Virus record (IMG/VR): IMGVR_UViG_2711768016_000013
Reading direction: 5' to 3' (one strand)
DNA from: a virus
Lineage: Duplodnaviria; Heunggongvirae; Uroviricota; Caudoviricetes
DNA length: 48,174 nucleotides
Shown here: in pieces, positions 1,553 through 15,708 of the stretch
How positions within the stretch are numbered: the first letter of the stretch is position 1
Layout: each line of letters opens with the position of its first letter
Position numbers and translations under genes: made by a program
Notes under the pieces: model-generated
What the model saw: only the letters and a program-made list of their open reading frames with translations
The model's database searches: none
Told to the model about the DNA's origin: nothing

Positions 1553-1813
1553 TCACGAGGACTGAAGTTTCTCGCAATTAAAATTTATCAGTTTTACTTT
1601 CTGCTCTCTGGAAACGCCTGCTTCTTTTTTACCTGAGAGCATTTTTTCGCATTCTGATTTCGTTAGTTTAGATTTTGAATATCTTGTCCAGTTAGTAGGA
1701 GTGCCACCTTCCTTTTCAATAGTGGCGGTAATTTTATACATGAACACCTCCATTATTATTTCCAGTGGTTCGTTTATTTCATCGTTCGAGTGCTTCTTTT
1801 TCACTTCCACCAT
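1553..1813 (-). CDS. ydaC: Small hypothetical early protein (YdaC-like); start uncertain
   Basis: 86-aa ORF between xis and recT; several in-frame Met candidates (MEVFMYK...); overlaps the 3' end of the ralR frame. Confidence 0.5.
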   Translation of the reverse strand: MVEVKKKHSNDEINEPLEIIMEVFMYKITATIEKEGGTPTNWTRYSKSKLTKSECEKMLSGKKEAGVSREQKVKLINFNCEKLQSS

Positions 1814-1928
1814 AACCGGTTCGGGATTCGCATCCGTTACACTTCGCTCGGTAATATCCTGAAATGGCTTTCACCGTTACTGATGGACAACCACAAAATG
1901 GACATGGTTTAACATTGTCATATCTCAT
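1779..1928 (-). CDS. ralR: RalR-like small toxin / restriction-alleviation protein, truncated at 49 codons by an in-frame TGA
   Basis: Minus-strand translation MRYDNVKPCPFCGCPSVTVKAISGYYRAKCNGCESRTGYGGSEKEALER then TGA (plus 1779-1781); same frame continues NKRTTGNNNGGVHV to a TAA; below the 60-aa cutoff of the ORF track. Confidence 0.6.
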   Translation of the reverse strand: MRYDNVKPCPFCGCPSVTVKAISGYYRAKCNGCESRTGYGGSEKEALER

Positions 1929-1983
1929 AATTTTTCTCATAAAAATATTTCAAGTTGGCGGTGCATTACACCGCCAGGCTGAA

Positions 1984-2793
1984 TTATTCCTCTGAATTAT
2001 CGATTACACTGTATTCCCCGGTTAATACAGAGGAATCTGCAGGATCGATTGTCAGTGGTTCCTTTTCATCCATTGATACTGCACGCTGGATCTCAATTGA
2101 TACGGGCAGATATTTGAACAGGCGACGAATAGCCGTTTTCTTTGCCATTTCTTCCCAGTGAGTTACCCACGGCCCGTTATTACCAGCTTTACTCTGGCTG
2201 CGCACCAGCTCAATCTGTTTGCGCGTCATAACTTCAAACTGAGTACCTCCGTCTTTCAGTCTTGCGACAGCATAGACGTGGGTAACAGGGGCATCTTCGT
2301 TTTCTCCTGGGCGGTGTATTAACTTTTCATCAAGGCCAAATTCGAAATTAAACTCGTCACCTTCACGGACAACACGGGCTGACAGGCTGGCGATTTGACC
2401 TGAACGGCGAGCCAGATCAATCATGCCGCGATAGCCAATGATTAGCTGAACGTTTTTTTTACCGCTCTTTTCGTTTTTATTACCAAAAGGCAGTAAATAT
2501 GCATGACCGAGGGCGCTACCGGGCTCAAGTCCGAGCTGTGAACACTGTACGATTGCACTGACAAAACTCATAGTGTCACAGTTTCCTAACGCCGGAACTT
2601 TACGAATTTCTGTGGTGGCGATACGGATCATACGTTCAGCCGTCATATGGCGTGGAAGAGCTGCTGCCAGTTGCTCTTTCATTGATGGCTGGTTAATAAA
2701 ACTAATCACGTCGTTATTTTTAATTGCTGCTGGTGCACGGTTTCCCTGAGTTTTTTGCAGATCGGCTTTTGCGATTGGTGGTTGCTTAGTCAT
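1984..2793 (-). CDS. recT: RecT single-strand annealing recombinase, 269 aa from ATG at 2793
   Basis: Translation [23 protein letters not shown]... matches RecT as remembered; overlaps the recE stop. Confidence 0.93.
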
Positions 2794-5386
2794 TTGCATA
2801 TTCCTTAGCCCAGCGGGGCAGTGATAACGTCTTAATAGCTGGCCATTCATCGGTATTGAGGCAGTCAGCCAGGGTTCGCAGATTGCGGTGATATTCCAGC
2901 TGACCTGCCAGTTTTGCTTCTTCGCCCATCATGAAAATTTCAACCGGATAACGTCCGCATTCAATAGTTGTGCTGGCAACCAGAAAAACGAAAGTTGGCT
3001 GCACTCCAAACTGTGCTTCATAACCGTCACTGTAGAATGCATCCTGAACGTGATAGCGGTAGTCGTAATAAGCGGTTTTGAATCGTTGAATATCCGCCGT
3101 AGTTTTCACGTCCATGATCCAGTGAAATTCAGGGATAATTTTGTCCGGACGGCACCGACACAAAATTGCTGTTTCAGGATCTTCCCAGTAAATTGATGAT
3201 TCAGCGTGTCCGGCGCTTTCAACAAGCCATTGCCCCAGCGGCAAAGCCATAACGCTCTGATACATGAGTTCAATTTTCCGGCCTTCTTCGGCAGTGATAA
3301 CCGTTTTTCCTGTGCTTGCGCATTCCCTCAGAAACGCTTTCTCTTCTTCTTTTCCGGAGTTTGTCCGGCGGTTAAATTCAGGTGCTACGATAAAGCGGTT
3401 ACTGAATTCTTCCGGCTCAAGTACCCGGCAGTGGAAAGCGGTTCCTAAATCGAGCGTTTTTGTCTTTGTGGTGTCCACGGGGGCATTTTTACGCCACAAA
3501 TACAGTGCCGGAGTATCAGCAATGTCATCGAGCTGAGACTTACTGACACCGGGACCCGCGTGGTAATTCTCATTCGAAATTCCGTAATAAATACCTGGCT
3601 CTATGTCTTCTACGATTACGGGATCTGCGACTTCGCCAGTTTCATCACTGCAATCGCGATGCGGATCGCTGCCAGCATTCTCATTGTGCGGATGTTCAGC
3701 GCCTTCCATTTCCTCCGGATCATTTTCCTTAGCTTCAACCTGACTCTCTTCATCGAATGTTTCCTGGTATGTTGCGTCGCCCATCACCGCACCACAGTCA
3801 GGGCAGTTATCCCCGCCAGTCTGGCCGCAGGCATTGCAGGCTATTTCCGGTTCCTGTTGCACTACTGGCTCAGGTTGATTCATATCCGGGCTGGTTTTTT
3901 CCGTTTCTGGCTGGTTCTGGTACACACAATCGCGAGTCTGGATCCCCTTTACCCATTTCGGATCGTTCGGGTCGCTAATTCCGTCAACAAATTCACCACG
4001 TGATGCAGCAAGCAATTTATCGGCATCGACAGGATTTTTTGATGGAATGTTTTTCCGGGCTTCATGGAGTTCTGCCCGCAGTTCCTGATATTTCGCATCA
4101 ACAGAATTTACCTGTGACTGAGCATCCAGCGGCTGCGTGTCCTGATGATGTTCAGTTGCGTCCGGTTCCATTGTTTCAGCCTCTCCCTGTTCAACTGCCG
4201 TTGTTCCAGATGGTTGCGGTTTTTCTTCATCATCCTGTTTTCCTTCTTCTGTTACTCGCTGCGGCATCGGGGCAGAGGAGCGACCGCAGGCAATATCCAC
4301 GATTTCCGGATCAGGGTTGGCATGATCGGTTTCAGTCAGTACTTTGTTCAGATATTCAGTGACGTGCGCGGGGATGACCTCGATCCCAATTGGTGCTTCT
4401 TTTACGGACGCAACCACGATGGCGCGGGAATAATCCAGCCCGCCAGGCATGGTGATGAATTTGTCGCGGAAAACAGAAAAGGGCGGTTTATTTTCAGCGA
4501 TAATTTCCTCAATGCGTTTAGCGTGTGCCGGATGAAGGTTATAGATGTCCAGATCCATTGAACGGGCCAGTACGCCAGTGGCTACGTCCCGCGCCAGTGA
4601 CGTCAGATCGTGTACGAAACCTTCGCCGCGATCGGTGAGGTTTCCGCCGCCAGCATTAGCACCGGAAGCCGTGCGAGTGATGTGTGAAACACGATTACCC
4701 TTCATCCACTCTTTTGTCAGCAGTCCTCGATCGGTGTAGTCAGCGTTCAGGTATGCTTCGAAAAAAGCAGTTATCAGTCCCAGGTTTGAATTACCAGGAT
4801 TAGGGAAAACTTTGTCAGTGTCACGAACCAGTTTGTGGAGTTCGCGAATTTCCAGCGGGTCGAGCAGGCTGGTTTTGTGGGAAACAGCCAGGGCAGTAAC
4901 AGCCGGTAGTTCTTCAGCCCGAGCAATGTGTAATGCCTGGAGTCCGTCGCGTGAAACGTGCGTTACCGGTTTTTCGCTGCCGTGTTGAGCAAGCCAACGA
5001 ATGGGCAGTTCCTGGCCAGAAATTGGGAGTAGCATATTCTCCTCAATCTCAGTCATGTCTTCGCCGTTGACGTTGGTATTGCCTTGATAGTGAGCGTTGT
5101 CTGGTGCTGCTCCCGGTTTTAGTTCCCATGTCATGGAGTCTTTGCTGAGTTGATAGCGTTCACTCCAGGTAAAATCGATCTCACCTTCAGCGGGCAGGTC
5201 ATTAACGACAGGAAAATTCGTGGCAACAGCTTTAAAATAGCTGCTCAGTTTTTTACCTGACTTAACGATCAGGTAGTCCAGAGTGGCACAGGTCGATTCA
5301 AAATCGTTGCTTGCCCACAGGACGACGTCAGGTTCACCGGATGATTTTTTCGCTTTCCGTAACAGGAAGAGTGGTTTTGTGCTCAT
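2786..5386 (-). CDS. recE: RecE exonuclease VIII, 866 aa
   Basis: 866-aa ORF, length and sequence consistent with RecE; acidic N-terminal half, C-terminal nuclease region; coupled to recT. Confidence 0.93.
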
Positions 5387-5837: not shown

Positions 5838-6008
5838 TTAAAGTTCATGTGCCATCTGGTCTTTTTCGGCACAAGCTTCACTGCAATATTTTCTCGGTTC
5901 GTCTTTTGATAAAATCCCGTGCATGAAGTGAAGCATTCTTTCAATAGCTTTGCTTTCTTCAACGTCTTTTTTGCAAAGGTGGTAAGCACATTTTATTTTC
6001 TTAGTCAT
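5838..6008 (-). CDS. ydaE: Small Cys/His-rich protein (YdaE-like), 56 aa
   Basis: Hand translation of minus strand [56 protein letters not shown]; below the ORF-track cutoff. Confidence 0.75.
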   Translation of the reverse strand: MTKKIKCAYHLCKKDVEESKAIERMLHFMHGILSKDEPRKYCSEACAEKDQMAHEL

Positions 6009-6229
6009 CACCATGACTCCGCCTTTACAGGTAAACCATCACGACCGAGGAAGACTTTAATCATGCGGTCAGTAATGCATGTTTTTGTGGTCAGGTTACG
6101 AATATATAGTTTTCGCTTTTTAATATTGTTTGCCGAGGCAATATATGTCCGGCCTTCATGAAGAACATAATCGCCAGGAGTCACACACTGACGTGGTATT
6201 TCATCAGTTCCGAAGTGATGTGCAATCAT
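6008..6229 (-). CDS. kilR: KilR-like host killing / cell-division inhibitor, 73 aa
   Basis: [45 protein letters not shown]...; GGAG about 6 nt upstream of the ATG at 6229. Confidence 0.82.
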
Positions 6230-6670
6230 AATTATCTCCATTTTTACAAATGAACTTTGTTGATGCGGTGCCTGGTGCCTCCAGGTGACTGCAACCAGTT
6301 AACAATTACAGTCGGCTTTCCCACCCAAACCAATAAGGACTAACATGACTTTTAACTGTGCCACGTGCGCTTAGCCGCATTCACCGCATCACAAAATTCA
6401 CTTTAAAAAGGGCGGACATCAGCCGAACTTCAAGAAAAAAACTGATGCCGCCAGGACTACACACAGCAATGTCGTTATTTACAACCGGAGGCGCACTCCC
6501 ACCATTTAAATTTAACAGACAAGACCGACTCTTTATGGATATCGGAAATGCGCCTTCGTGTTGTGCCCGGTTTTATTTCACCACCTCCGGGCTTCGGTGG
6601 TCTCGGCTATACCCCTACAGCGAGAGCTTGTGTTAACATTTCAATACCCTTACAGTTGAGAGTTATTGAT

Positions 6671-7159
6671 ATGTTGGATGTATTTACTCCATTGTTGAAA
6701 CTTTTTGCTAACGAGCCACTCGAAATACTTATGTATACGATTATCATTTTTGGTCTCACTCTCTGGCTGATACCGAAAGAGTTTACTGTCGCATTCAATG
6801 CTTATACTGAAATACCTTGGCTCTTTCAGATTATCGTTTTTGCCTTTTCTTTCGTGGTCGCCATTTCCTTCTCAAGATTGCGAGCACATATTCAAAAGCA
6901 TTATTCATTACTACCAGAGCAACGAGTATTGCTTCGTTTATCTGAGAAAGAAATCGCTGTATTTAAAGATTTCCTTAAAACAGGAAATCTTATTATCACT
7001 TCTCCTTGCCGTAACCCGGTTATGAAAAAATTAGAACGGAAGGGCATCATTCAACATCAGAGTGATAGCGCAAACTGTTCTTATTATCTCGTCACCGAAA
7101 AATACTCCCATTTTATGAAGTTATTCTGGAACAGCAGGAGTAGACGTTTTAATCGTTAG
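6671..7159 (+). CDS. sieB: Superinfection exclusion protein B, membrane protein, 162 aa
   Basis: MLDVFTPLLKLFANEPLEILMYTIIIFGLTLWLIPKEF... with hydrophobic helices; ATG at 6671 within the longer ORF. Confidence 0.85.
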   Translation: MLDVFTPLLKLFANEPLEILMYTIIIFGLTLWLIPKEFTVAFNAYTEIPWLFQIIVFAFSFVVAISFSRLRAHIQKHYSLLPEQRVLLRLSEKEIAVFKDFLKTGNLIITSPCRNPVMKKLERKGIIQHQSDSANCSYYLVTEKYSHFMKLFWNSRSRRFNR

Positions 7160-8500: not shown

Positions 8501-8919
8501 AAATCAAGCATGAGCACATCGAGTCAGTGTTGTTAGCCCTGGCAGCCGAAAAAGGGCAGGCATGGGTAGCCAATGCCATTACTGAAGAATATCTGCGCCA
8601 GGGGGGCGGCGAATTGCCCCTGGTACCAGGCAAGGACTGGAATAATCAGCAGAATATCTATCACCGTTGGTTGAAAGGTGAAACGAAAACGCAAAGAGAA
8701 AAAATTCAGAAGCTGATCCCAGCAATTCTGGCAATCCTTCCGCGCGAGCTGCGTCACCGACTCTGCATCTTCGATACCCTGGAACGCCGTGCATTACTGG
8801 CGGCGCAGGAAGCGTTAAGTACGGCAATTGATGCGCATGATGATGCAGTCCAAGCCGTTTACCGGAAAGCGCATTTCAGCGGCGGCGGGTCTTCCGACGA
8901 TTCTGTCATTGTTCATTAA
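8497..8919 (+). CDS. ydaT: YdaT-like protein, 140 aa
   Basis: MKIKHEHIESVLLALAAEKGQAWV...; coupled to ydaS (ATGA overlap). Confidence 0.8.
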   Translation: MKIKHEHIESVLLALAAEKGQAWVANAITEEYLRQGGGELPLVPGKDWNNQQNIYHRWLKGETKTQREKIQKLIPAILAILPRELRHRLCIFDTLERRALLAAQEALSTAIDAHDDAVQAVYRKAHFSGGGSSDDSVIVH

Positions 8920-8931
8920 GCAAAAGTTTCC

Positions 8932-9789
8932 ATGCTGTTTGTGCTTATTCTAAGCCACCGGGCAGCATCATACGGGGCAATTATGGCCGCATTACCATAC
9001 ATGCAACTGTACATAGCTGATTACCTGGCTGACACCATGCATTTGTCAGCAGAGGAGCATGGTGCGTATTTGTTGCTGATGTTCAATTACTGGCAAACAG
9101 GAAAGCCAATACCTAAAAACAGGCTGGCAAAAATTGCCCGTCTGACTAACGAGCGATGGGCTGATGTTGAACCATCCTTGCAGGAGTTTTTTTGCGATAA
9201 CGGCGAGGAATGGGTGCATCTTCGGATTGAGGAAGATCTGGCATCAGTCAGGGAAAAATTAACCAAAAAATCAGCCGCAGGAAAAGCATCTGTTCAGGCC
9301 AGAAGAAGCAGAAAGGAAGCAGATGTTCAAACAAAACAAGAGAGAAATTTAACAGGTGTTCAAACAGATGTTGAAGTGGTGTTTGAACATGATGTCAACA
9401 CAAAGGCAACTAATAAAGATACAGATAAAGATCTAAAAACAGATCCCCCCCTAAATCCCCCCCGGGGGAATCGAGGTGTCAAAAAGTTTGACCCTCTGGA
9501 TATTGCTTTGCCGAACTGGATTTCTGTCTCGCTTTGGCGTGAGTGGGTTGAATTTCGCCAGGCATTGCGAAAACCGATTCGAACGGAGCAGGGCGCTAAC
9601 GGGGCGATACGGGAGCTGGAAAAATTCCGCCAGCAGGGTTTTTCACCTGAGCAGGTGATTCGACACAGCATCGCCAATGAATACCAGGGCTTGTTCGCGC
9701 CGAAAGGTGTTCGACCTGAGACGTTACTCCGACAGGTTAACACCGTCTCGTTACCGGATAGTGCGATCCCGCCAGGCTTCAGGGGGTAA
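8932..9789 (+). CDS. ydaU: Replication initiation protein (YdaU-like, lambda O analogue)
   Basis: 285-aa ORF immediately upstream of the DnaC-like gene; family assignment from memory. Confidence 0.75.
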   Translation: MLFVLILSHRAASYGAIMAALPYMQLYIADYLADTMHLSAEEHGAYLLLMFNYWQTGKPIPKNRLAKIARLTNERWADVEPSLQEFFCDNGEEWVHLRIEEDLASVREKLTKKSAAGKASVQARRSRKEADVQTKQERNLTGVQTDVEVVFEHDVNTKATNKDTDKDLKTDPPLNPPRGNRGVKKFDPLDIALPNWISVSLWREWVEFRQALRKPIRTEQGANGAIRELEKFRQQGFSPEQVIRHSIANEYQGLFAPKGVRPETLLRQVNTVSLPDSAIPPGFRG

Positions 9790-11758: not shown

Positions 11759-11914
11759 ACGTTACTAGATCAAAGAGCATTAGTTCATATGTAAATTGAC
11801 ATTTTTCTGGCACAGGGGAGAGCTAGCGTGGTTGTCCGCTTTGTGCCAATAGCGGACATTGCTGGCTCATGGTATGTTAGTTTAAGGAGGCAGGTTATGC
11901 CCTGTATTTCGCTG

Positions 11915-11923
11915 TGGTATAAT
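11915..11923 (+). promoter_or_regulatory. Extended -10 promoter element (TGgTATAAT) upstream of the accessory operon
   Basis: TG at 11915-11916 and TATAAT at 11918-11923, about 34 nt upstream of the GTG at 11957. Confidence 0.4.
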
Positions 11924-11956
11924 AGTTGCGCAATTGATACAAGGGAGCGTTACATC

Positions 11957-12919
11957 GTGAAAATTGTTTTCGAGGTTAATGGAAAGAAAGTTCCACTAAA
12001 ATCTTTAAAATACATAAGCAAAAAAGATCAACTCGAAGTAATGAAAAACTGGTTCTTTGAAAACTTTGAAGATCCGGCAAATGCTTGTCCGTATGAAAGT
12101 AGAGAAGGTGGCTATGCTTACATATATGGCGGGCCGTATGATGCGAGCGAAGAACTACAATCCATCTTCGGTCAATATGTTAAATCTGAGTATATTGAGG
12201 AATTAGTAGATGAATTACAAACACAATGTTTTGACTGGTCTGGAAACTCAAATAATATAGATGATTGGTACGATGATGATATCTACGACGCTGTAACGTC
12301 TTCCGGTAATCCGTATTTAAAATTCATTGATAATATCGATAAAATAAAAAAACTTGCAAAAGATAAAACTGAACAACAGCAAAAAAACCACTTGCTTAGT
12401 TTGCTCTACACGAATGTTATTACAGCTTTGGAAACGCTTTATGTTGAGCTATTCATTAATTCTATAGAGAAAGATGATGTCTACATAGCCAATTGTATAG
12501 AAAAAGGTAAGACTGAATTTAAAGTAAGCAAAGATATTGCTGCGTTGCCTTTCAAGGGTGAACCCATCGAGAAAATTAGGGGAGAGCTAATCAGGTCAAT
12601 CAAGGAACACTTGATCAGTGCAAGCTGGCATAGCACTAAAAAGGTAATCGACCGCTATGAAGCTACATTCGATATAAAAGTACAAAAAGACTGTCCGATA
12701 GAAGCTATTGAATTGGCAACCCTCAATCGAAATCACTTAGTGCATCGTGGTGGAAAGGATAAAGAAGGGAACCTCGTAGTGATTACAGACCAGGATCTTG
12801 AAACGCTGATTGAAAATGCATCGAACCTGGCAATTATGCTCTACAACAGTTTAAATGTAGCAACGAATAAAACCACCATTTTGCAACCAGATGACAAACC
12901 GTTCATTCATGAATTTTAA
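11957..12919 (+). CDS. Uncharacterized protein with C-terminal Rx4H (HEPN-like) motif; first gene of AT-rich accessory operon
   Basis: Start uncertain (GTG 11957 with AGGGAG 9 nt upstream; longest ORF starts 11828); LNRNHLVHRGG at codons 299-309 follows predicted helices; low GC. Confidence 0.6.
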   Translation: MKIVFEVNGKKVPLKSLKYISKKDQLEVMKNWFFENFEDPANACPYESREGGYAYIYGGPYDASEELQSIFGQYVKSEYIEELVDELQTQCFDWSGNSNNIDDWYDDDIYDAVTSSGNPYLKFIDNIDKIKKLAKDKTEQQQKNHLLSLLYTNVITALETLYVELFINSIEKDDVYIANCIEKGKTEFKVSKDIAALPFKGEPIEKIRGELIRSIKEHLISASWHSTKKVIDRYEATFDIKVQKDCPIEAIELATLNRNHLVHRGGKDKEGNLVVITDQDLETLIENASNLAIMLYNSLNVATNKTTILQPDDKPFIHEF

Positions 12920-12934
12920 TAGCGCAGGTCATAC

Positions 12935-13936
12935 ATGGATATTCGCACACGAAAGACAAAATTTTTAGAGTCGTTAGATTCAACTGAAGTGATACGCAAA
13001 GCAGTAAGTCTCGCTATAGATTGCATTATTGATAATCATAATAGTAATGAAGATACCCCCTTAGTTATTACCAGCTATGATGATCTCTGTAGAATCCAGG
13101 TGCTAAATTATGTACAGGAGTTTTGCGAAGCTGCATTCCCTGATATGGATGAATATTACTTTAGTCCTAACATACTTCGCATCAACGGCAAGACTAGTGA
13201 AGAAGCTTGTATTAACTTAATTAAACTCTTAAGAAGTACAAAAGGCATGCTATTCTGGTCCGATGCCCCATCGTGGTTCGCTAGCCTCCCCGACGGATTA
13301 TTCCATGTTGTTAACATTGATCAAAAAATCGTTACTCGCGGCCTTAATAAGAAAAACTCTAAGCCGACAATAATCAATAAAGATTACAGTGTAGATACAC
13401 TACTATCAGAGCTATTTTTGAATGGCGCACACATGGAGCAACCCAACGTACACAACGTTTCTGAGGGAAACATGAAGTTCTATGATGAATGCCATGCTGG
13501 ATTAATCAGACCAATACCCGCTCCAATAGGCGCGTCATACGATGAAGAGATCACAATTAATTCTCCAGATTGGCAAAAGCTCGCGTGTGTAGCTTTACGC
13601 CGCTATCAGTCGAAGGAATGTCATGACGGAATGCAATGGGATACAACCGATCATGGTTGGACTGATGTAATCGCGTATCCATTCGTCGAAGAAATACAAT
13701 CAATGGATAATAGTGGTTATCGACAATGTTTAGTTGGGCTGGTCACAATAAACAATTCAAATGCAAATTCTCCGTACCTATCTACCGTTTGGATACATCC
13801 ATTTTATCGCAGGAGAGGGTTATTAAGTAAGTTATGGCCAAAATTACAAGAGTTATATGGAAGTAACTTCGAAATTGAGCGACCTAATGAAAATATGAAA
13901 GCATTTCTGAAAAGTGCGAAACACGCAGATTACTAA
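12935..13936 (+). CDS. Uncharacterized 333-aa protein with C-terminal GNAT-like motif; second gene of accessory operon
   Basis: ATG 15 nt after upstream stop; VWIHPFYRRRGLLSKLW resembles GNAT acetyl-CoA-binding motif A. Confidence 0.65.
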   Translation: MDIRTRKTKFLESLDSTEVIRKAVSLAIDCIIDNHNSNEDTPLVITSYDDLCRIQVLNYVQEFCEAAFPDMDEYYFSPNILRINGKTSEEACINLIKLLRSTKGMLFWSDAPSWFASLPDGLFHVVNIDQKIVTRGLNKKNSKPTIINKDYSVDTLLSELFLNGAHMEQPNVHNVSEGNMKFYDECHAGLIRPIPAPIGASYDEEITINSPDWQKLACVALRRYQSKECHDGMQWDTTDHGWTDVIAYPFVEEIQSMDNSGYRQCLVGLVTINNSNANSPYLSTVWIHPFYRRRGLLSKLWPKLQELYGSNFEIERPNENMKAFLKSAKHADY

Positions 13937-14113
13937 TTTATGAATCAGTCTGTGGAGTTAGGGTTGGTGTGAACAAGTAGGGTAAGAGCCTCAACGTGAT
14001 GCTATGCCGACCTGCTCCCTGAGAATTCACACAGAAGGCTGCTAGCAATGTCTGCAGATCGCTCAAAGCGGACTAAAATGTTGGCTTGTTTCTGACTTAG
14101 AGCATTTAAGGAA

Positions 14114-14338
14114 GTGCTGGTGGTGACTGGTTGTTGTGTTCCATTTCTACAGAATAAAATCACAGAAACTATACCCAATAGTTGTATTGAATCACTGACG
14201 AGACAGCCTCATATTTATCAGGACTGGTGTGCGTCTAATACAGGGGGTTGTCGTGCTGGTTCTCAAATGTGCGCTGGCTATTGCGGCTGTAATGGCAATT
14301 TATTGTCTTGCTGTTGTTCTTATGGAGCGGCTTTCTGA
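14114..14338 (+). CDS. Possible small Cys-rich peptide (9 Cys in the last 35 residues); weak call
   Basis: GTG-initiated ORF; C-terminus CRAGSQMCAGYCGCNGNLLSCCCSYGAAF; no convincing RBS. Confidence 0.2.
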   Translation: MLVVTGCCVPFLQNKITETIPNSCIESLTRQPHIYQDWCASNTGGCRAGSQMCAGYCGCNGNLLSCCCSYGAAF

Positions 14339-14496
14339 TTGATTACATACTGGCTAGAAAAAAGGTGTTACCTTGGTTTATCTTTGTCCGGCAAGGTGCG
14401 CTCATTAATCTTAAGTAAATTTATTGCTCAAGTATTCAGATTACTTCTTATGGTTGAAGTCTCCTGTCAATGTAGAACCAATATATTTACAAAAAT

Positions 14497-14535
14497 GAGA
14501 CCCGTCGGGGATAGCCCTGCCGGGTCTGACTGTTA
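14497..14535 (-). terminator. Hairpin plus T-run downstream of the minus-strand gene 14557..14895
   Basis: AGACCCG...CGGGTCT stem followed by CATTTTTG on the minus strand. Confidence 0.4.
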
Positions 14536-14556
14536 AAGCATTTTTAATATGATCAT

Positions 14557-14895
14557 CTATTTTTTGGTGCTATAGACTTTTTCGCCCGAAAAGTCTGGAG
14601 CGACCCAAAAGTTAATATTAAACTGAGCATCATCGCTTAGTTCAACACGGTGCCAGTATTGTGGTGGGCTTGTTGCAAAAGCGCCAGCATTAATGACTAC
14701 TTTTATCTCCGGTTCAGTAGCATTCTCATCAGTAAAACCATAATATGTTACAGTGCCTTCCATTACGCACAACTGCCCAAAAACACCTGCTGCTGTATTA
14801 TGATGTGTTAATAACGCTGAAGGTACGTTCTCTTTTGTGAAGAACGGAGTTGAGCGTTTGATTACCCAATCTTTAGGAATTCTCTTGTGTGTCAT
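14557..14895 (-). CDS. Hypothetical protein, possibly cupin-like (DUF1971-like); accessory gene on opposite strand
   Basis: ATG at 14895 with GGAGGAGG 7 nt upstream; MTHKRIPKDWVIKRSTPFFTKENVPSALL...; fold assignment tentative. Confidence 0.55.
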   Translation of the reverse strand: MTHKRIPKDWVIKRSTPFFTKENVPSALLTHHNTAAGVFGQLCVMEGTVTYYGFTDENATEPEIKVVINAGAFATSPPQYWHRVELSDDAQFNINFWVAPDFSGEKVYSTKK

Positions 14896-15708
14896 AACCA
14901 CCTCCTCCAAAACATGCATTAAAAATGCATCTTTTGGAGGGTTATGTCAAGCTGTTATGAAACACATAATTGATATGTTGATTAGAGGAGAAGATAGAAT
15001 AAATATGGTTGTTTTTCGTATAACTATTTGTTTTACTTTTAGTTTATGCATTCTGTGTGTTAGGAATAAGTTATTAAAGTTTAATCAAAAAATCTCGATG
15101 TAGTCCACATAGATTACTGTTACTGAACCTTATTGTGTGTATTAGTTGTGTTCTGAAATTTCAGCTTAATTATTTATGATGTATTTTTTAACGATAAATA
15201 TTTTCCCAGGATACCTTTACTGTGTATATAAATAAATTATATACGCATAAATAATGTAAAGGCGTCCTTTTAGATATATCTTATCAAATGTTAATGACTT
15301 GAGTGGGAAATATGATTCCAGCAACTTATCATGTGGCTACTTTATAAAAATAATGCCCATATAAAACAACAAGCGAAAAGGATTACGGATAAAAAAGGAG
15401 CGAGATGTGCGAACTTGTTATTTTCCATGTTTAACCACCTTAAATAATTGATGATGACGGGATGATTGCATCTGTAATGCTTTTATTGAAATGTTATGAT
15501 AAAAAAGAACTTTTGCATAACATTAAAATGTAATTTATCTAATCGTTTTTAATAATAAGTGTCGTATTTCTATCCTTGTACCAGCTATTTGATATGTAGT
15601 GTTTGTTCATGCTATGTGGGGCTTTACACCATAGCCAGTTTATTTATACTTTATTCGTCAGCCTGAACAACTGGCATCTGCTGCGCTGCGCCATCGAGAG
15701 ATTGAGAA

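Follow-up and report, generated by a model that had tools for sequence, protein, structure and literature searches.

What does the protein encoded directly behind a HEPN-type gene in a Rac-like prophage do, and does it depend on that neighbor? The question arises at IMG/VR virus record IMGVR_UViG_2711768016_000013 (Caudoviricetes), a stretch of 48,174 nucleotides that was analyzed as a whole and is called the window here; coordinates refer to it unless another locus is named. The open reading frame (ORF) concerned, gene B, begins just after the predicted HEPN gene, gene A, and an earlier note made from the sequence alone had flagged a peptide near its C-terminus as a GNAT-like (Gcn5-related N-acetyltransferase) acetyl-CoA-binding motif. 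Our analysis shows that the C-terminal ~150 residues are modeled as a divergent minimal GNAT-fold acyltransferase module, in which the flagged peptide, VWIHPFYRRRGLLSKLW, forms the predicted acetyl-CoA-binding beta4-alpha3 loop. On balance, we favor a reading in which gene B encodes an acetyl-CoA-dependent GNAT effector in phage-host conflict, likely serving abortive-infection-type defense, that could act without gene A and is not a toxin of the TacT/AtaT toxin-antitoxin (TA) type. The features of gene B are the following.

12935 to 13936, plus strand: gene B, a 333-aa ORF with two domains (RefSeq WP_000354966.1, "hypothetical protein"; PHROG 16994, unknown function)
12935 to 13414, plus strand: N-terminal domain (aa 1 to ~160), predicted P-loop-NTPase-like alpha/beta fold (AAA+/STAND/ORC-Cdc6 type) without Walker A
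13484 to 13933, plus strand: C-terminal minimal GNAT-fold module (aa ~184-333), predicted as beta1-alpha1-alpha2-beta2-beta3-beta4-alpha3-beta5-alpha4 with no beta6/beta7
13787 to 13837, plus strand: flagged peptide VWIHPFYRRRGLLSKLW (aa 285-301), end of beta4 and start of alpha3, assigned to GNAT motif A (R292-x-x-G295-x-L297) from in-frame translation, Pfam alignment, and conservation
13859 to 13915, plus strand: beta5-alpha4 segment YGSNFEIERPNENMKAFLK, assigned as the equivalent of GNAT motif B from DSSP and conservation (conserved P317 and M321)

Evidence for a GNAT fold in gene B

The flagged peptide lies in frame near the C-terminus of gene B, and its assignment as motif A was borne out by the Pfam alignment, the conserved R292, and the predicted fold. 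Set against the canonical motif, h-x-P-x-x-[R/Q]-x-x-G-x-[G/A]-x-x-L, residues I287, P289, R292, G295, and L300 fit, whereas the final G/A position is Leu297. Hence, of the R/Q-x-x-G-x-G/A element read in the earlier note after the hydrophobic strand, the arginine and the first glycine stand and the closing small residue does not (R292-R-R-G295-L-L297). The bare pattern lends no support by itself, being no more frequent than chance: when the window was translated in six frames, h-x-P-x-x-[RQ]-x-x-G occurred three times versus 7.4 times in shuffled sequences, and the strict pattern ending in G/A did not occur at all. The motif is nevertheless counted as real because profiles, the predicted fold, and conservation, rather than the pattern alone, support it independently.

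Domain and fold searches had been suggested as checks. Residues 264-311 of gene B aligned to positions 42-91 of the Pfam profile PF00583 (Acetyltransf_1) with an E value of 9e-4; the window protein scored 19.9 bits, just under the gathering cut-off of 20.7, but 16 of 43 aligned orthologues (39-91% identity) matched the same profile at E values up to 0.01, the best at 6e-6. PF00583 is also a precomputed assignment of two gene B orthologues (P0044 and P0046), the NCBI name "GNAT family N-acetyltransferase" is attached to two further ones, and PGAP gives this name to the C-terminal fragment of a gene B copy split by IS1. The GNAT call was therefore partly anticipated by the NCBI annotation of fragments and some orthologues, and it is correct without being new in kind. 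NCBIfam holds no family for gene B, and PDB sequence searches, whether started from the protein itself or from the profile of its family, yielded only SAGA factor 11 (E 0.39) and a radical SAM protein (E 0.037).

Structure prediction gave a GNAT fold. An AlphaFold2 model built from the family alignment (pLDDT 89.9, pTM 0.83) contained the GNAT core fold, and a Foldseek comparison with the PDB returned GNAT superfamily members for all 50 of the 50 best matches, among them HAT1, ESCO1, MYST, aminoglycoside and polyamine acetyltransferases, and RibT; RibT and PanZ, both short GNATs, were among the structural matches. By DSSP, alpha1 spans residues 212-229, beta2-beta4 245-287, alpha3 289-308, beta5 lies at ~313, and alpha4 spans 319-327, after which the protein ends. 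The best structural matches in this model are protein and polyamine acetyltransferases, not the toxins that acetylate aminoacyl-tRNA, and such a ranking of folds does not fix the substrate.

Conservation was assessed in an alignment of 42 relatives, comprising 19 full-length and 23 stand-alone proteins. R292 and P289 were conserved in 100%, H288 in 95%, and W301 in 92% of them, P317 and M321 in at least 92%, and S210, W213, R223, E228, W242, G268, L282, H288, P289, W301, P317, and M321 each in at least 85%. The resulting family signature is W-[ILV]-H-P-F-x-R-x-x-G-x-h.

The N-terminal domain and the extent of the module

The earlier note had left the first 240 residues without recognizable features and had thereby placed the GNAT part within the last ~90 residues; both statements need revision. 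The module begins near residue 184, and its bounds (aa ~184-333) follow from the occurrence of the same segment as stand-alone proteins. Upstream of it, residues 1 to ~160 adopt a P-loop-NTPase-like fold in the model. When residues 1-190 were modeled separately (pLDDT 87.9), the N-terminal domain showed the three-layer alpha/beta P-loop core. At the beta1-alpha1 junction, where the Walker A motif GxxxxGK[ST] would lie, this motif is absent and gene B reads PLVITSYDDLCR (VITSYDDLCR); the family consensus at this site, PIVxxSYxDxxR, likewise lacks Gly-Lys. The model and consensus together show the N-terminal ~160 residues as a predicted P-loop-NTPase-like domain that has lost Walker A. A Walker-B-like segment, MLFWSD110, lies on the strand 106-109 (judged by the pattern hhhhD[DE]), with D110 at least 90% conserved, although its meaning is doubtful without Walker A. 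In an exhaustive search of 1.84 billion cluster representatives, the N-terminal domain was found solely in full-length family members or fragments.

Full-length gene B homologues form 66 clusters, and gene B itself matches PHROG 16994 at 4.5e-246. A hidden Markov model search of the same 1.84 billion representatives yielded 469 matches at E values up to 1e-3. Profile positions ~180 to 330 also occur as stand-alone proteins of 150-170 aa (E 1e-37 to 1e-20), which stop at the same point as gene B, right after alpha4, and the segment from motif A to alpha4 (profile ~277-330) recurs at the C-terminus of proteins of 437-568 aa. Remoter relatives of 160-190 aa share the block W-x-H-P-[FY]-x-R-R-x-G-x-L..LWP...FG.F.V..P....M..FL. 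Nine of ten such remote relatives tested had no Pfam match and none of ten proteins of the wider clade matched NCBIfam; because the remote relatives mostly lack matches in both databases, the gene B module and its stand-alone relatives constitute a divergent GNAT clade without a Pfam or NCBIfam model of its own. A word-indexed homologue search with the C-terminal domain alone returned only fragments.

The stand-alone proteins form a large clade of 150-190 aa (P0193-P0218 and P0238-P0272; loci L026-L028 and L033-L037) carrying the C-terminal block of gene B, W-x-H-P-F-x-R-R-x-G ... P-x-x-x-M-x-x-F-L. One of them, P0193, lies in a phage replication module, overlapping a DUF3987 primase/helicase-like gene at that gene's end, another lies near genes for SieB and a trypsin-like peptidase, and a third follows rpoD; a fixed partner, such as the upstream primase gene, was rejected for these proteins given the heterogeneity of their contexts. 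In two longer proteins, P0234 (568 aa) and P0242 (492 aa; locus L029), the motif A-B block is C-terminal and a second, degenerate copy lies in the N-terminal third (RFIWCHPFVR in P0234 and RFVWRSGLNG in P0242); as read from these sequences, the double block suggests tandem GNAT-like modules.

Distribution and genomic setting of gene B

The distribution of gene B in Gammaproteobacteria shows an accessory gene that is self-contained and spreads horizontally; it is found in defense islands and in the cargo slots that prophages, plasmids, and integrative elements offer. On one IMG/VR contig (L059), a full-length PD-Lambda-4_A gene (1736-5329) is followed after 672 bp by a solo gene B of 86% identity (6001-7002) and, ~1.9 kb beyond the latter, by a PD-T4-3 GIY-YIG gene (8909-9697). 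PD-Lambda-4 corresponds to Avs8, a STAND protein that senses capsids (bioRxiv 10.64898/2026.01.04.697583). This locus has the appearance of a compact defense island, and a 209-aa ORF further downstream in it had no family match. Other neighbors of gene B include McrBC, a NERD nuclease, and a Tse2 ADP-ribosyltransferase toxin, and a further copy lies beside the DUF4400 gene of an integrative and conjugative element. A tblastn search found seven gene B copies on plasmids; the gene also occurs on a probable phage-plasmid.

The window itself matches a Rac-like lambdoid prophage; at the matching E. coli locus, recE, kilR, sieB, repressors, and replication genes lie upstream and lysis genes downstream. 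Genes A and B belong to an island of low guanine-plus-cytosine (GC) content with these further features.

11759 to 15708, no strand: low-GC (27-44%) cargo island between the DUF977 and DUF1367 genes, holding gene A, gene B, and a DUF1971 gene (from composition and Pfam)
14557 to 14919, minus strand: DUF1971 gene (like the TehB N-terminal domain; PHROG 34268)
14920 to 15708: ~790-bp stretch of 27-31% GC in the same island, whose only ORFs are two short ones of 67-88 aa; no gene is called in it

In phage lambda, ren and the nin region begin at this position. After the DUF977 gene, phage Evi (L002) has in the same slot an XRE/cupin regulator together with a canonical GNAT (PF13673) encoded on the opposite strand, and phage Tritos (L003) has a 444-aa FRG-domain protein there, so that the slot is a cargo hot spot. 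The GNAT of Evi was considered as a relative of gene B and proved unrelated (BLASTP E 0.69). Just downstream, Evi, Tritos, and E. coli SF-173 carry a hokD/mokW gene, and the window carries the DUF1971 gene there. Scans for Rfam families, promoters, and terminators across 11.0-16.5 kb gave nothing above chance.

Gene A and its linkage to gene B

11957 to 12919, plus strand: gene A, 320 aa from the RefSeq GTG start (alternative ORF starts 11897 and 11828; WP_014639476.1), predicted PF18870 HEPN/RES N-terminal plus RiboL-PSP-type HEPN
12728 to 12745, plus strand: predicted HEPN catalytic motif R258-N-H-L-V-H263 (Rx4H) of gene A, from translation and conservation
12920 to 12934, plus strand: A-B spacer of 15 nt, of the same length in every A-B cassette seen (gene B at 79-100% identity)

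The sequence of gene A marks it as a probable RNase. Its own score against PF18870 was 22.2 bits, under the cut-off of 27.4, and its homologues of 58-76% identity carry PF18870 (HEPN/RES N-terminal domain 1) and/or PF18735 (RiboL-PSP-type HEPN). R258 and H263 were each 98% conserved in 111 aligned gene A homologues. PF18735 is listed for PD-T4-2, PD-T4-5, PD-T7-3, and ApeA (PMC10952713). A gene A homologue of 71% identity stands solo in an E. coli satellite resembling phage-inducible chromosomal islands (PICI-like; integrase, AlpA, and primase genes; related loci L016-L019).

Counted separately among 5426 complete E. coli genomes, gene A is present in 209 and gene B likewise in 209, nearly all at 99% identity or more; at least 80% of the whole A-B stretch is carried by 201 genomes. 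The cassette with its 15-nt spacer occurs in E. coli, Serratia grimesii, a Citrobacter IncFIB plasmid with phage-type genes, an Aeromonas caviae relaxase island, where it adjoins SIR2 and cREC genes, and an IMG/VR contig. This shows that in the E. coli/Serratia/Citrobacter/Aeromonas lineage gene B moves as a two-gene cassette 15 nt after the putative HEPN RNase gene. Conversely, all examined gene B homologues of 62% identity or less are solo, and no neighbor of gene B was conserved across 14 loci except gene A in three. A cassette 100% identical to that of E. coli was also present on a 3262-bp contig of a Collinsella sp. (Actinomycetota) metagenome-assembled genome (JAIHTM010000277.1; L004), which is probably a binning artefact and not a real transfer.

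Several loci carry one gene of the pair intact beside a damaged partner. On a Providencia plasmid, gene A is broken into three frames and gene B is intact, and in Rahnella an intact gene B is preceded by only the last 20 codons of gene A. The converse was seen in E. coli SF-173 (L038, 3078-3775), in which the insertion sequence (IS) IS1A splits gene B near residue 187, at the junction of the two domains, and gene A is intact, encoding an identical protein. In E. coli MB56 (L039, 1071-4433), ISSen4 separates the two genes, and two ISSen4 copies bracket gene A in the manner of a composite transposon. Other E. coli strains carry IS2 or IS1B inside the matched A-B stretch. Since intact copies of either gene occur next to a disrupted partner, neither is an obligate antidote of the other, with the caveat that both may be silent in the lysogen; an obligate toxin-antidote relation in either direction was accordingly down-weighted.

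Proposed role and competing explanations

In the favored reading, the GNAT module would bind acetyl-CoA and acetylate a macromolecule, perhaps at a lysine or the N-terminus of a protein or at an amine linked to RNA, and the pseudo-ATPase N-terminal domain could provide target recognition, oligomerization, or gating. The protein would act in phage-host conflict, most likely as an abortive-infection-type defense effector able to act without gene A. Speaking for a conflict role are the HEPN gene upstream with its conserved Rx4H motif, neighbors such as Avs8, PD-T4-3, McrBC, and SIR2 with cREC, the cargo hot spot occupied in the prophage, and the sparse occurrence of the pair in E. coli (209 of 5426 genomes). 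A more specific proposal, that gene B, with or without the HEPN gene A, forms a new anti-phage module that kills or arrests by acetylation, in which the Walker-A-less domain senses or gates and the minimal GNAT acetylates a host or phage macromolecule upon infection, is offered tentatively and is in our estimation somewhat doubtful.

Several observations weigh against an active defense enzyme. The last G/A of motif A is Leu, Phe, or Met across the family; G295, mostly Gly, is R, Q, or E in some orthologues; beta6-beta7 are missing from the model by DSSP; and alpha4 has Leu at the usual Tyr position, in a register read by eye rather than from a tool alignment. Owing to this atypical motif A, the lost strands, and the altered alpha4, the catalytic competence of the predicted GNAT is not assured. 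Gene B matched none of the 5027 PADLOC-DB v2.0 models at E values up to 1, and literature retrieved on the RefSeq accessions and on GNAT and HEPN defense systems held no description of the A-B pair or family. Location in defense islands is guilt by association, as such islands also hold anti-defense genes and unrelated cargo, and the stand-alone relative in a phage replication module equally fits a role that benefits the phage. Finally, genes A and B follow the replication genes and may not be expressed in lysogens, a possibility that weakens the arguments drawn from tolerance of disruption.

Could the GNAT-like module be catalytically dead, a binding or scaffold pseudo-enzyme paired with the pseudo-ATPase domain? 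The bulky hydrophobic residue in motif A, the variable G295, and the missing strands are compatible with this, as are the loss of the catalytic motif from the N-terminal domain as well, the score of gene B just under the Pfam cut-off, and the lack of a Pfam match for most of the wider clade. We nevertheless consider it unlikely, since the complete conservation of R292 and the conservation of H288, P289, E228, W213, and S210 down to ~30% identity point to selection on an active or ligand-binding site. GNATs bind pyrophosphate via backbone amides, and for this reason side-chain changes at the G/A position would be tolerated. The short GNATs RibT and PanZ among the structural matches argue in the same direction.

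By analogy with AcrVA5, an anti-CRISPR precedent that acetylates Cas12a (bioRxiv 10.1101/2021.11.16.468554 = PMC9114340), gene B might instead encode an anti-defense or host-takeover acetyltransferase that serves the mobile element and inactivates a host immune or housekeeping protein by acetylation. Such a function would suit its position right behind the replication genes, in the early-right part of a lambdoid prophage, as well as the stand-alone P0193 in its replication module and the copies on plasmids and the probable phage-plasmid. However, a tblastn search of 50,697 sequenced phage genomes found gene B in none of them. Several loci appear to be chromosomal, no mobile-element genes having been recognized in the examined flanks, and others are defense islands beside Avs8, PD-T4-3, and McrBC. 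In addition, gene B is predicted to be co-transcribed with a probable defense nuclease and not with known anti-defense genes, and this explanation therefore appears improbable to us.

Gene B could also be an enzymatic antidote or regulator that would neutralize or tune the putative HEPN RNase encoded by gene A by acetylating it, by analogy with the type VII HepT-MntA system, in which the partner AMPylates the HEPN toxin; enzyme-mediated control of HEPN toxins has precedent (PMC13000451). The identical 15-nt spacing in four genera and the equal number of E. coli genomes carrying each gene are in keeping with such a link, the best structural matches are protein acetyltransferases, and the decay of gene A where gene B persists (the Providencia plasmid, Rahnella, and a few E. 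coli) is the pattern expected for toxin loss. The intact gene A beside the split gene B of SF-173 and the IS element between the genes in MB56 stand against it, together with the solo gene A homologues (71% identity) in the PICI-like satellite and the solo gene B homologues. These solo homologues and IS-disrupted cases indicate that each gene works without the other, and we regard the antidote as quite unlikely.

Very unlikely, lastly, is a TacT/AtaT/ItaT-like TA toxin that would acetylate aminoacyl-tRNA with a neighbor such as gene A as antidote: toxins of this chemistry are established (PMC9177977, PMC4942678, PMC7595197), the predicted GNAT fold is real, and gene B, as part of a two-gene cassette, is carried by a mobile element, but no DUF1778/ribbon-helix-helix (RHH) partner is present (a HEPN gene lies upstream and the DUF1971 gene downstream on the other strand), none of the 14 loci has a conserved small neighbor and gene B persists without a fixed partner, and the protein has 333 aa in two domains rather than ~160-180 aa in one, with TacT and AtaT not among its best structural matches. 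With the DUF1778 partner, size, architecture, and fixed partner all lacking, this assignment was rejected; of the earlier suggestion that gene B is an enzymatic effector akin to GNAT toxins, the fold survives and the likeness to these toxins does not.

Significance and comparison with known systems

Gene B is at present a good candidate and not a discovery. What is new is threefold: a divergent GNAT clade that the databases do not model, the unique pseudo-P-loop domain to which it is fused, and the consistency with which it is found among defense genes; the architecture of a pseudo-P-loop domain joined to a minimal GNAT was not seen elsewhere. A "hypothetical protein" encoded by ~4% of the complete E. 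coli genomes, those of UTI89 and of the type strain ATCC 11775 among them, thereby becomes a testable enzyme candidate. If acetylation is its effector chemistry, gene B would represent a new biochemical mode for single-gene bacterial immunity or counter-immunity; if not, it would be an ordinary accessory acetyltransferase. A defense role would make it a GNAT-effector immune protein without a counterpart among PADLOC v2.0 models, and the stand-alone "WxHPFxRRxG" clade, within the 469 cluster representatives at E values up to 1e-3, would be an unmodeled pool of conflict acetyltransferases.

Within the GNAT superfamily (PF00583), the closest structural relatives of gene B are protein and polyamine N-acetyltransferases (alpha-tubulin acetyltransferase, ESCO1, HAT1/MYST, SSAT2, and NatD), from which it differs in its low identity (10-19%), the final Leu of motif A, the absence of beta6/beta7, and the fused unique N-terminal domain. 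The RNA cytidine acetyltransferases TmcA/NAT10, which combine a P-loop helicase domain with a GNAT, are also among the closest known systems. With TacT, AtaT, ItaT, and KacT and their DUF1778 partners, gene B shares a GNAT fold on mobile DNA and possibly a growth-arresting, acetyl-CoA-using effector, whereas the family definition (PMC9177977) separates it by the absence of a DUF1778/RHH gene, its 333 aa, its two domains, and the lack of a fixed partner. AcrVA5 is likewise a small divergent GNAT of a mobile element with a protein target in phage-host conflict, and the stand-alone relatives of gene B are similarly short; however, no sequence or structural match to AcrVA5 was retrieved, and gene B has an extra domain and was not found in sequenced phage genomes.

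For gene A, the nearest comparison is with aRES and other PF18870-headed single-gene effectors. PF18870 together with a RES domain is the criterion for detecting aRES defense genes (bioRxiv 10.64898/2026.01.28.702374). Gene A likewise appears to carry PF18870, with HEPN as its predicted effector where aRES has RES. Against the 5027 PADLOC-DB v2.0 models, gene A gave only matches of E 0.011 or weaker and none to aRES/PF18870-type system models. Gene A is thus a candidate single-gene defense nuclease, the putative HEPN counterpart of the RES-bearing aRES proteins.

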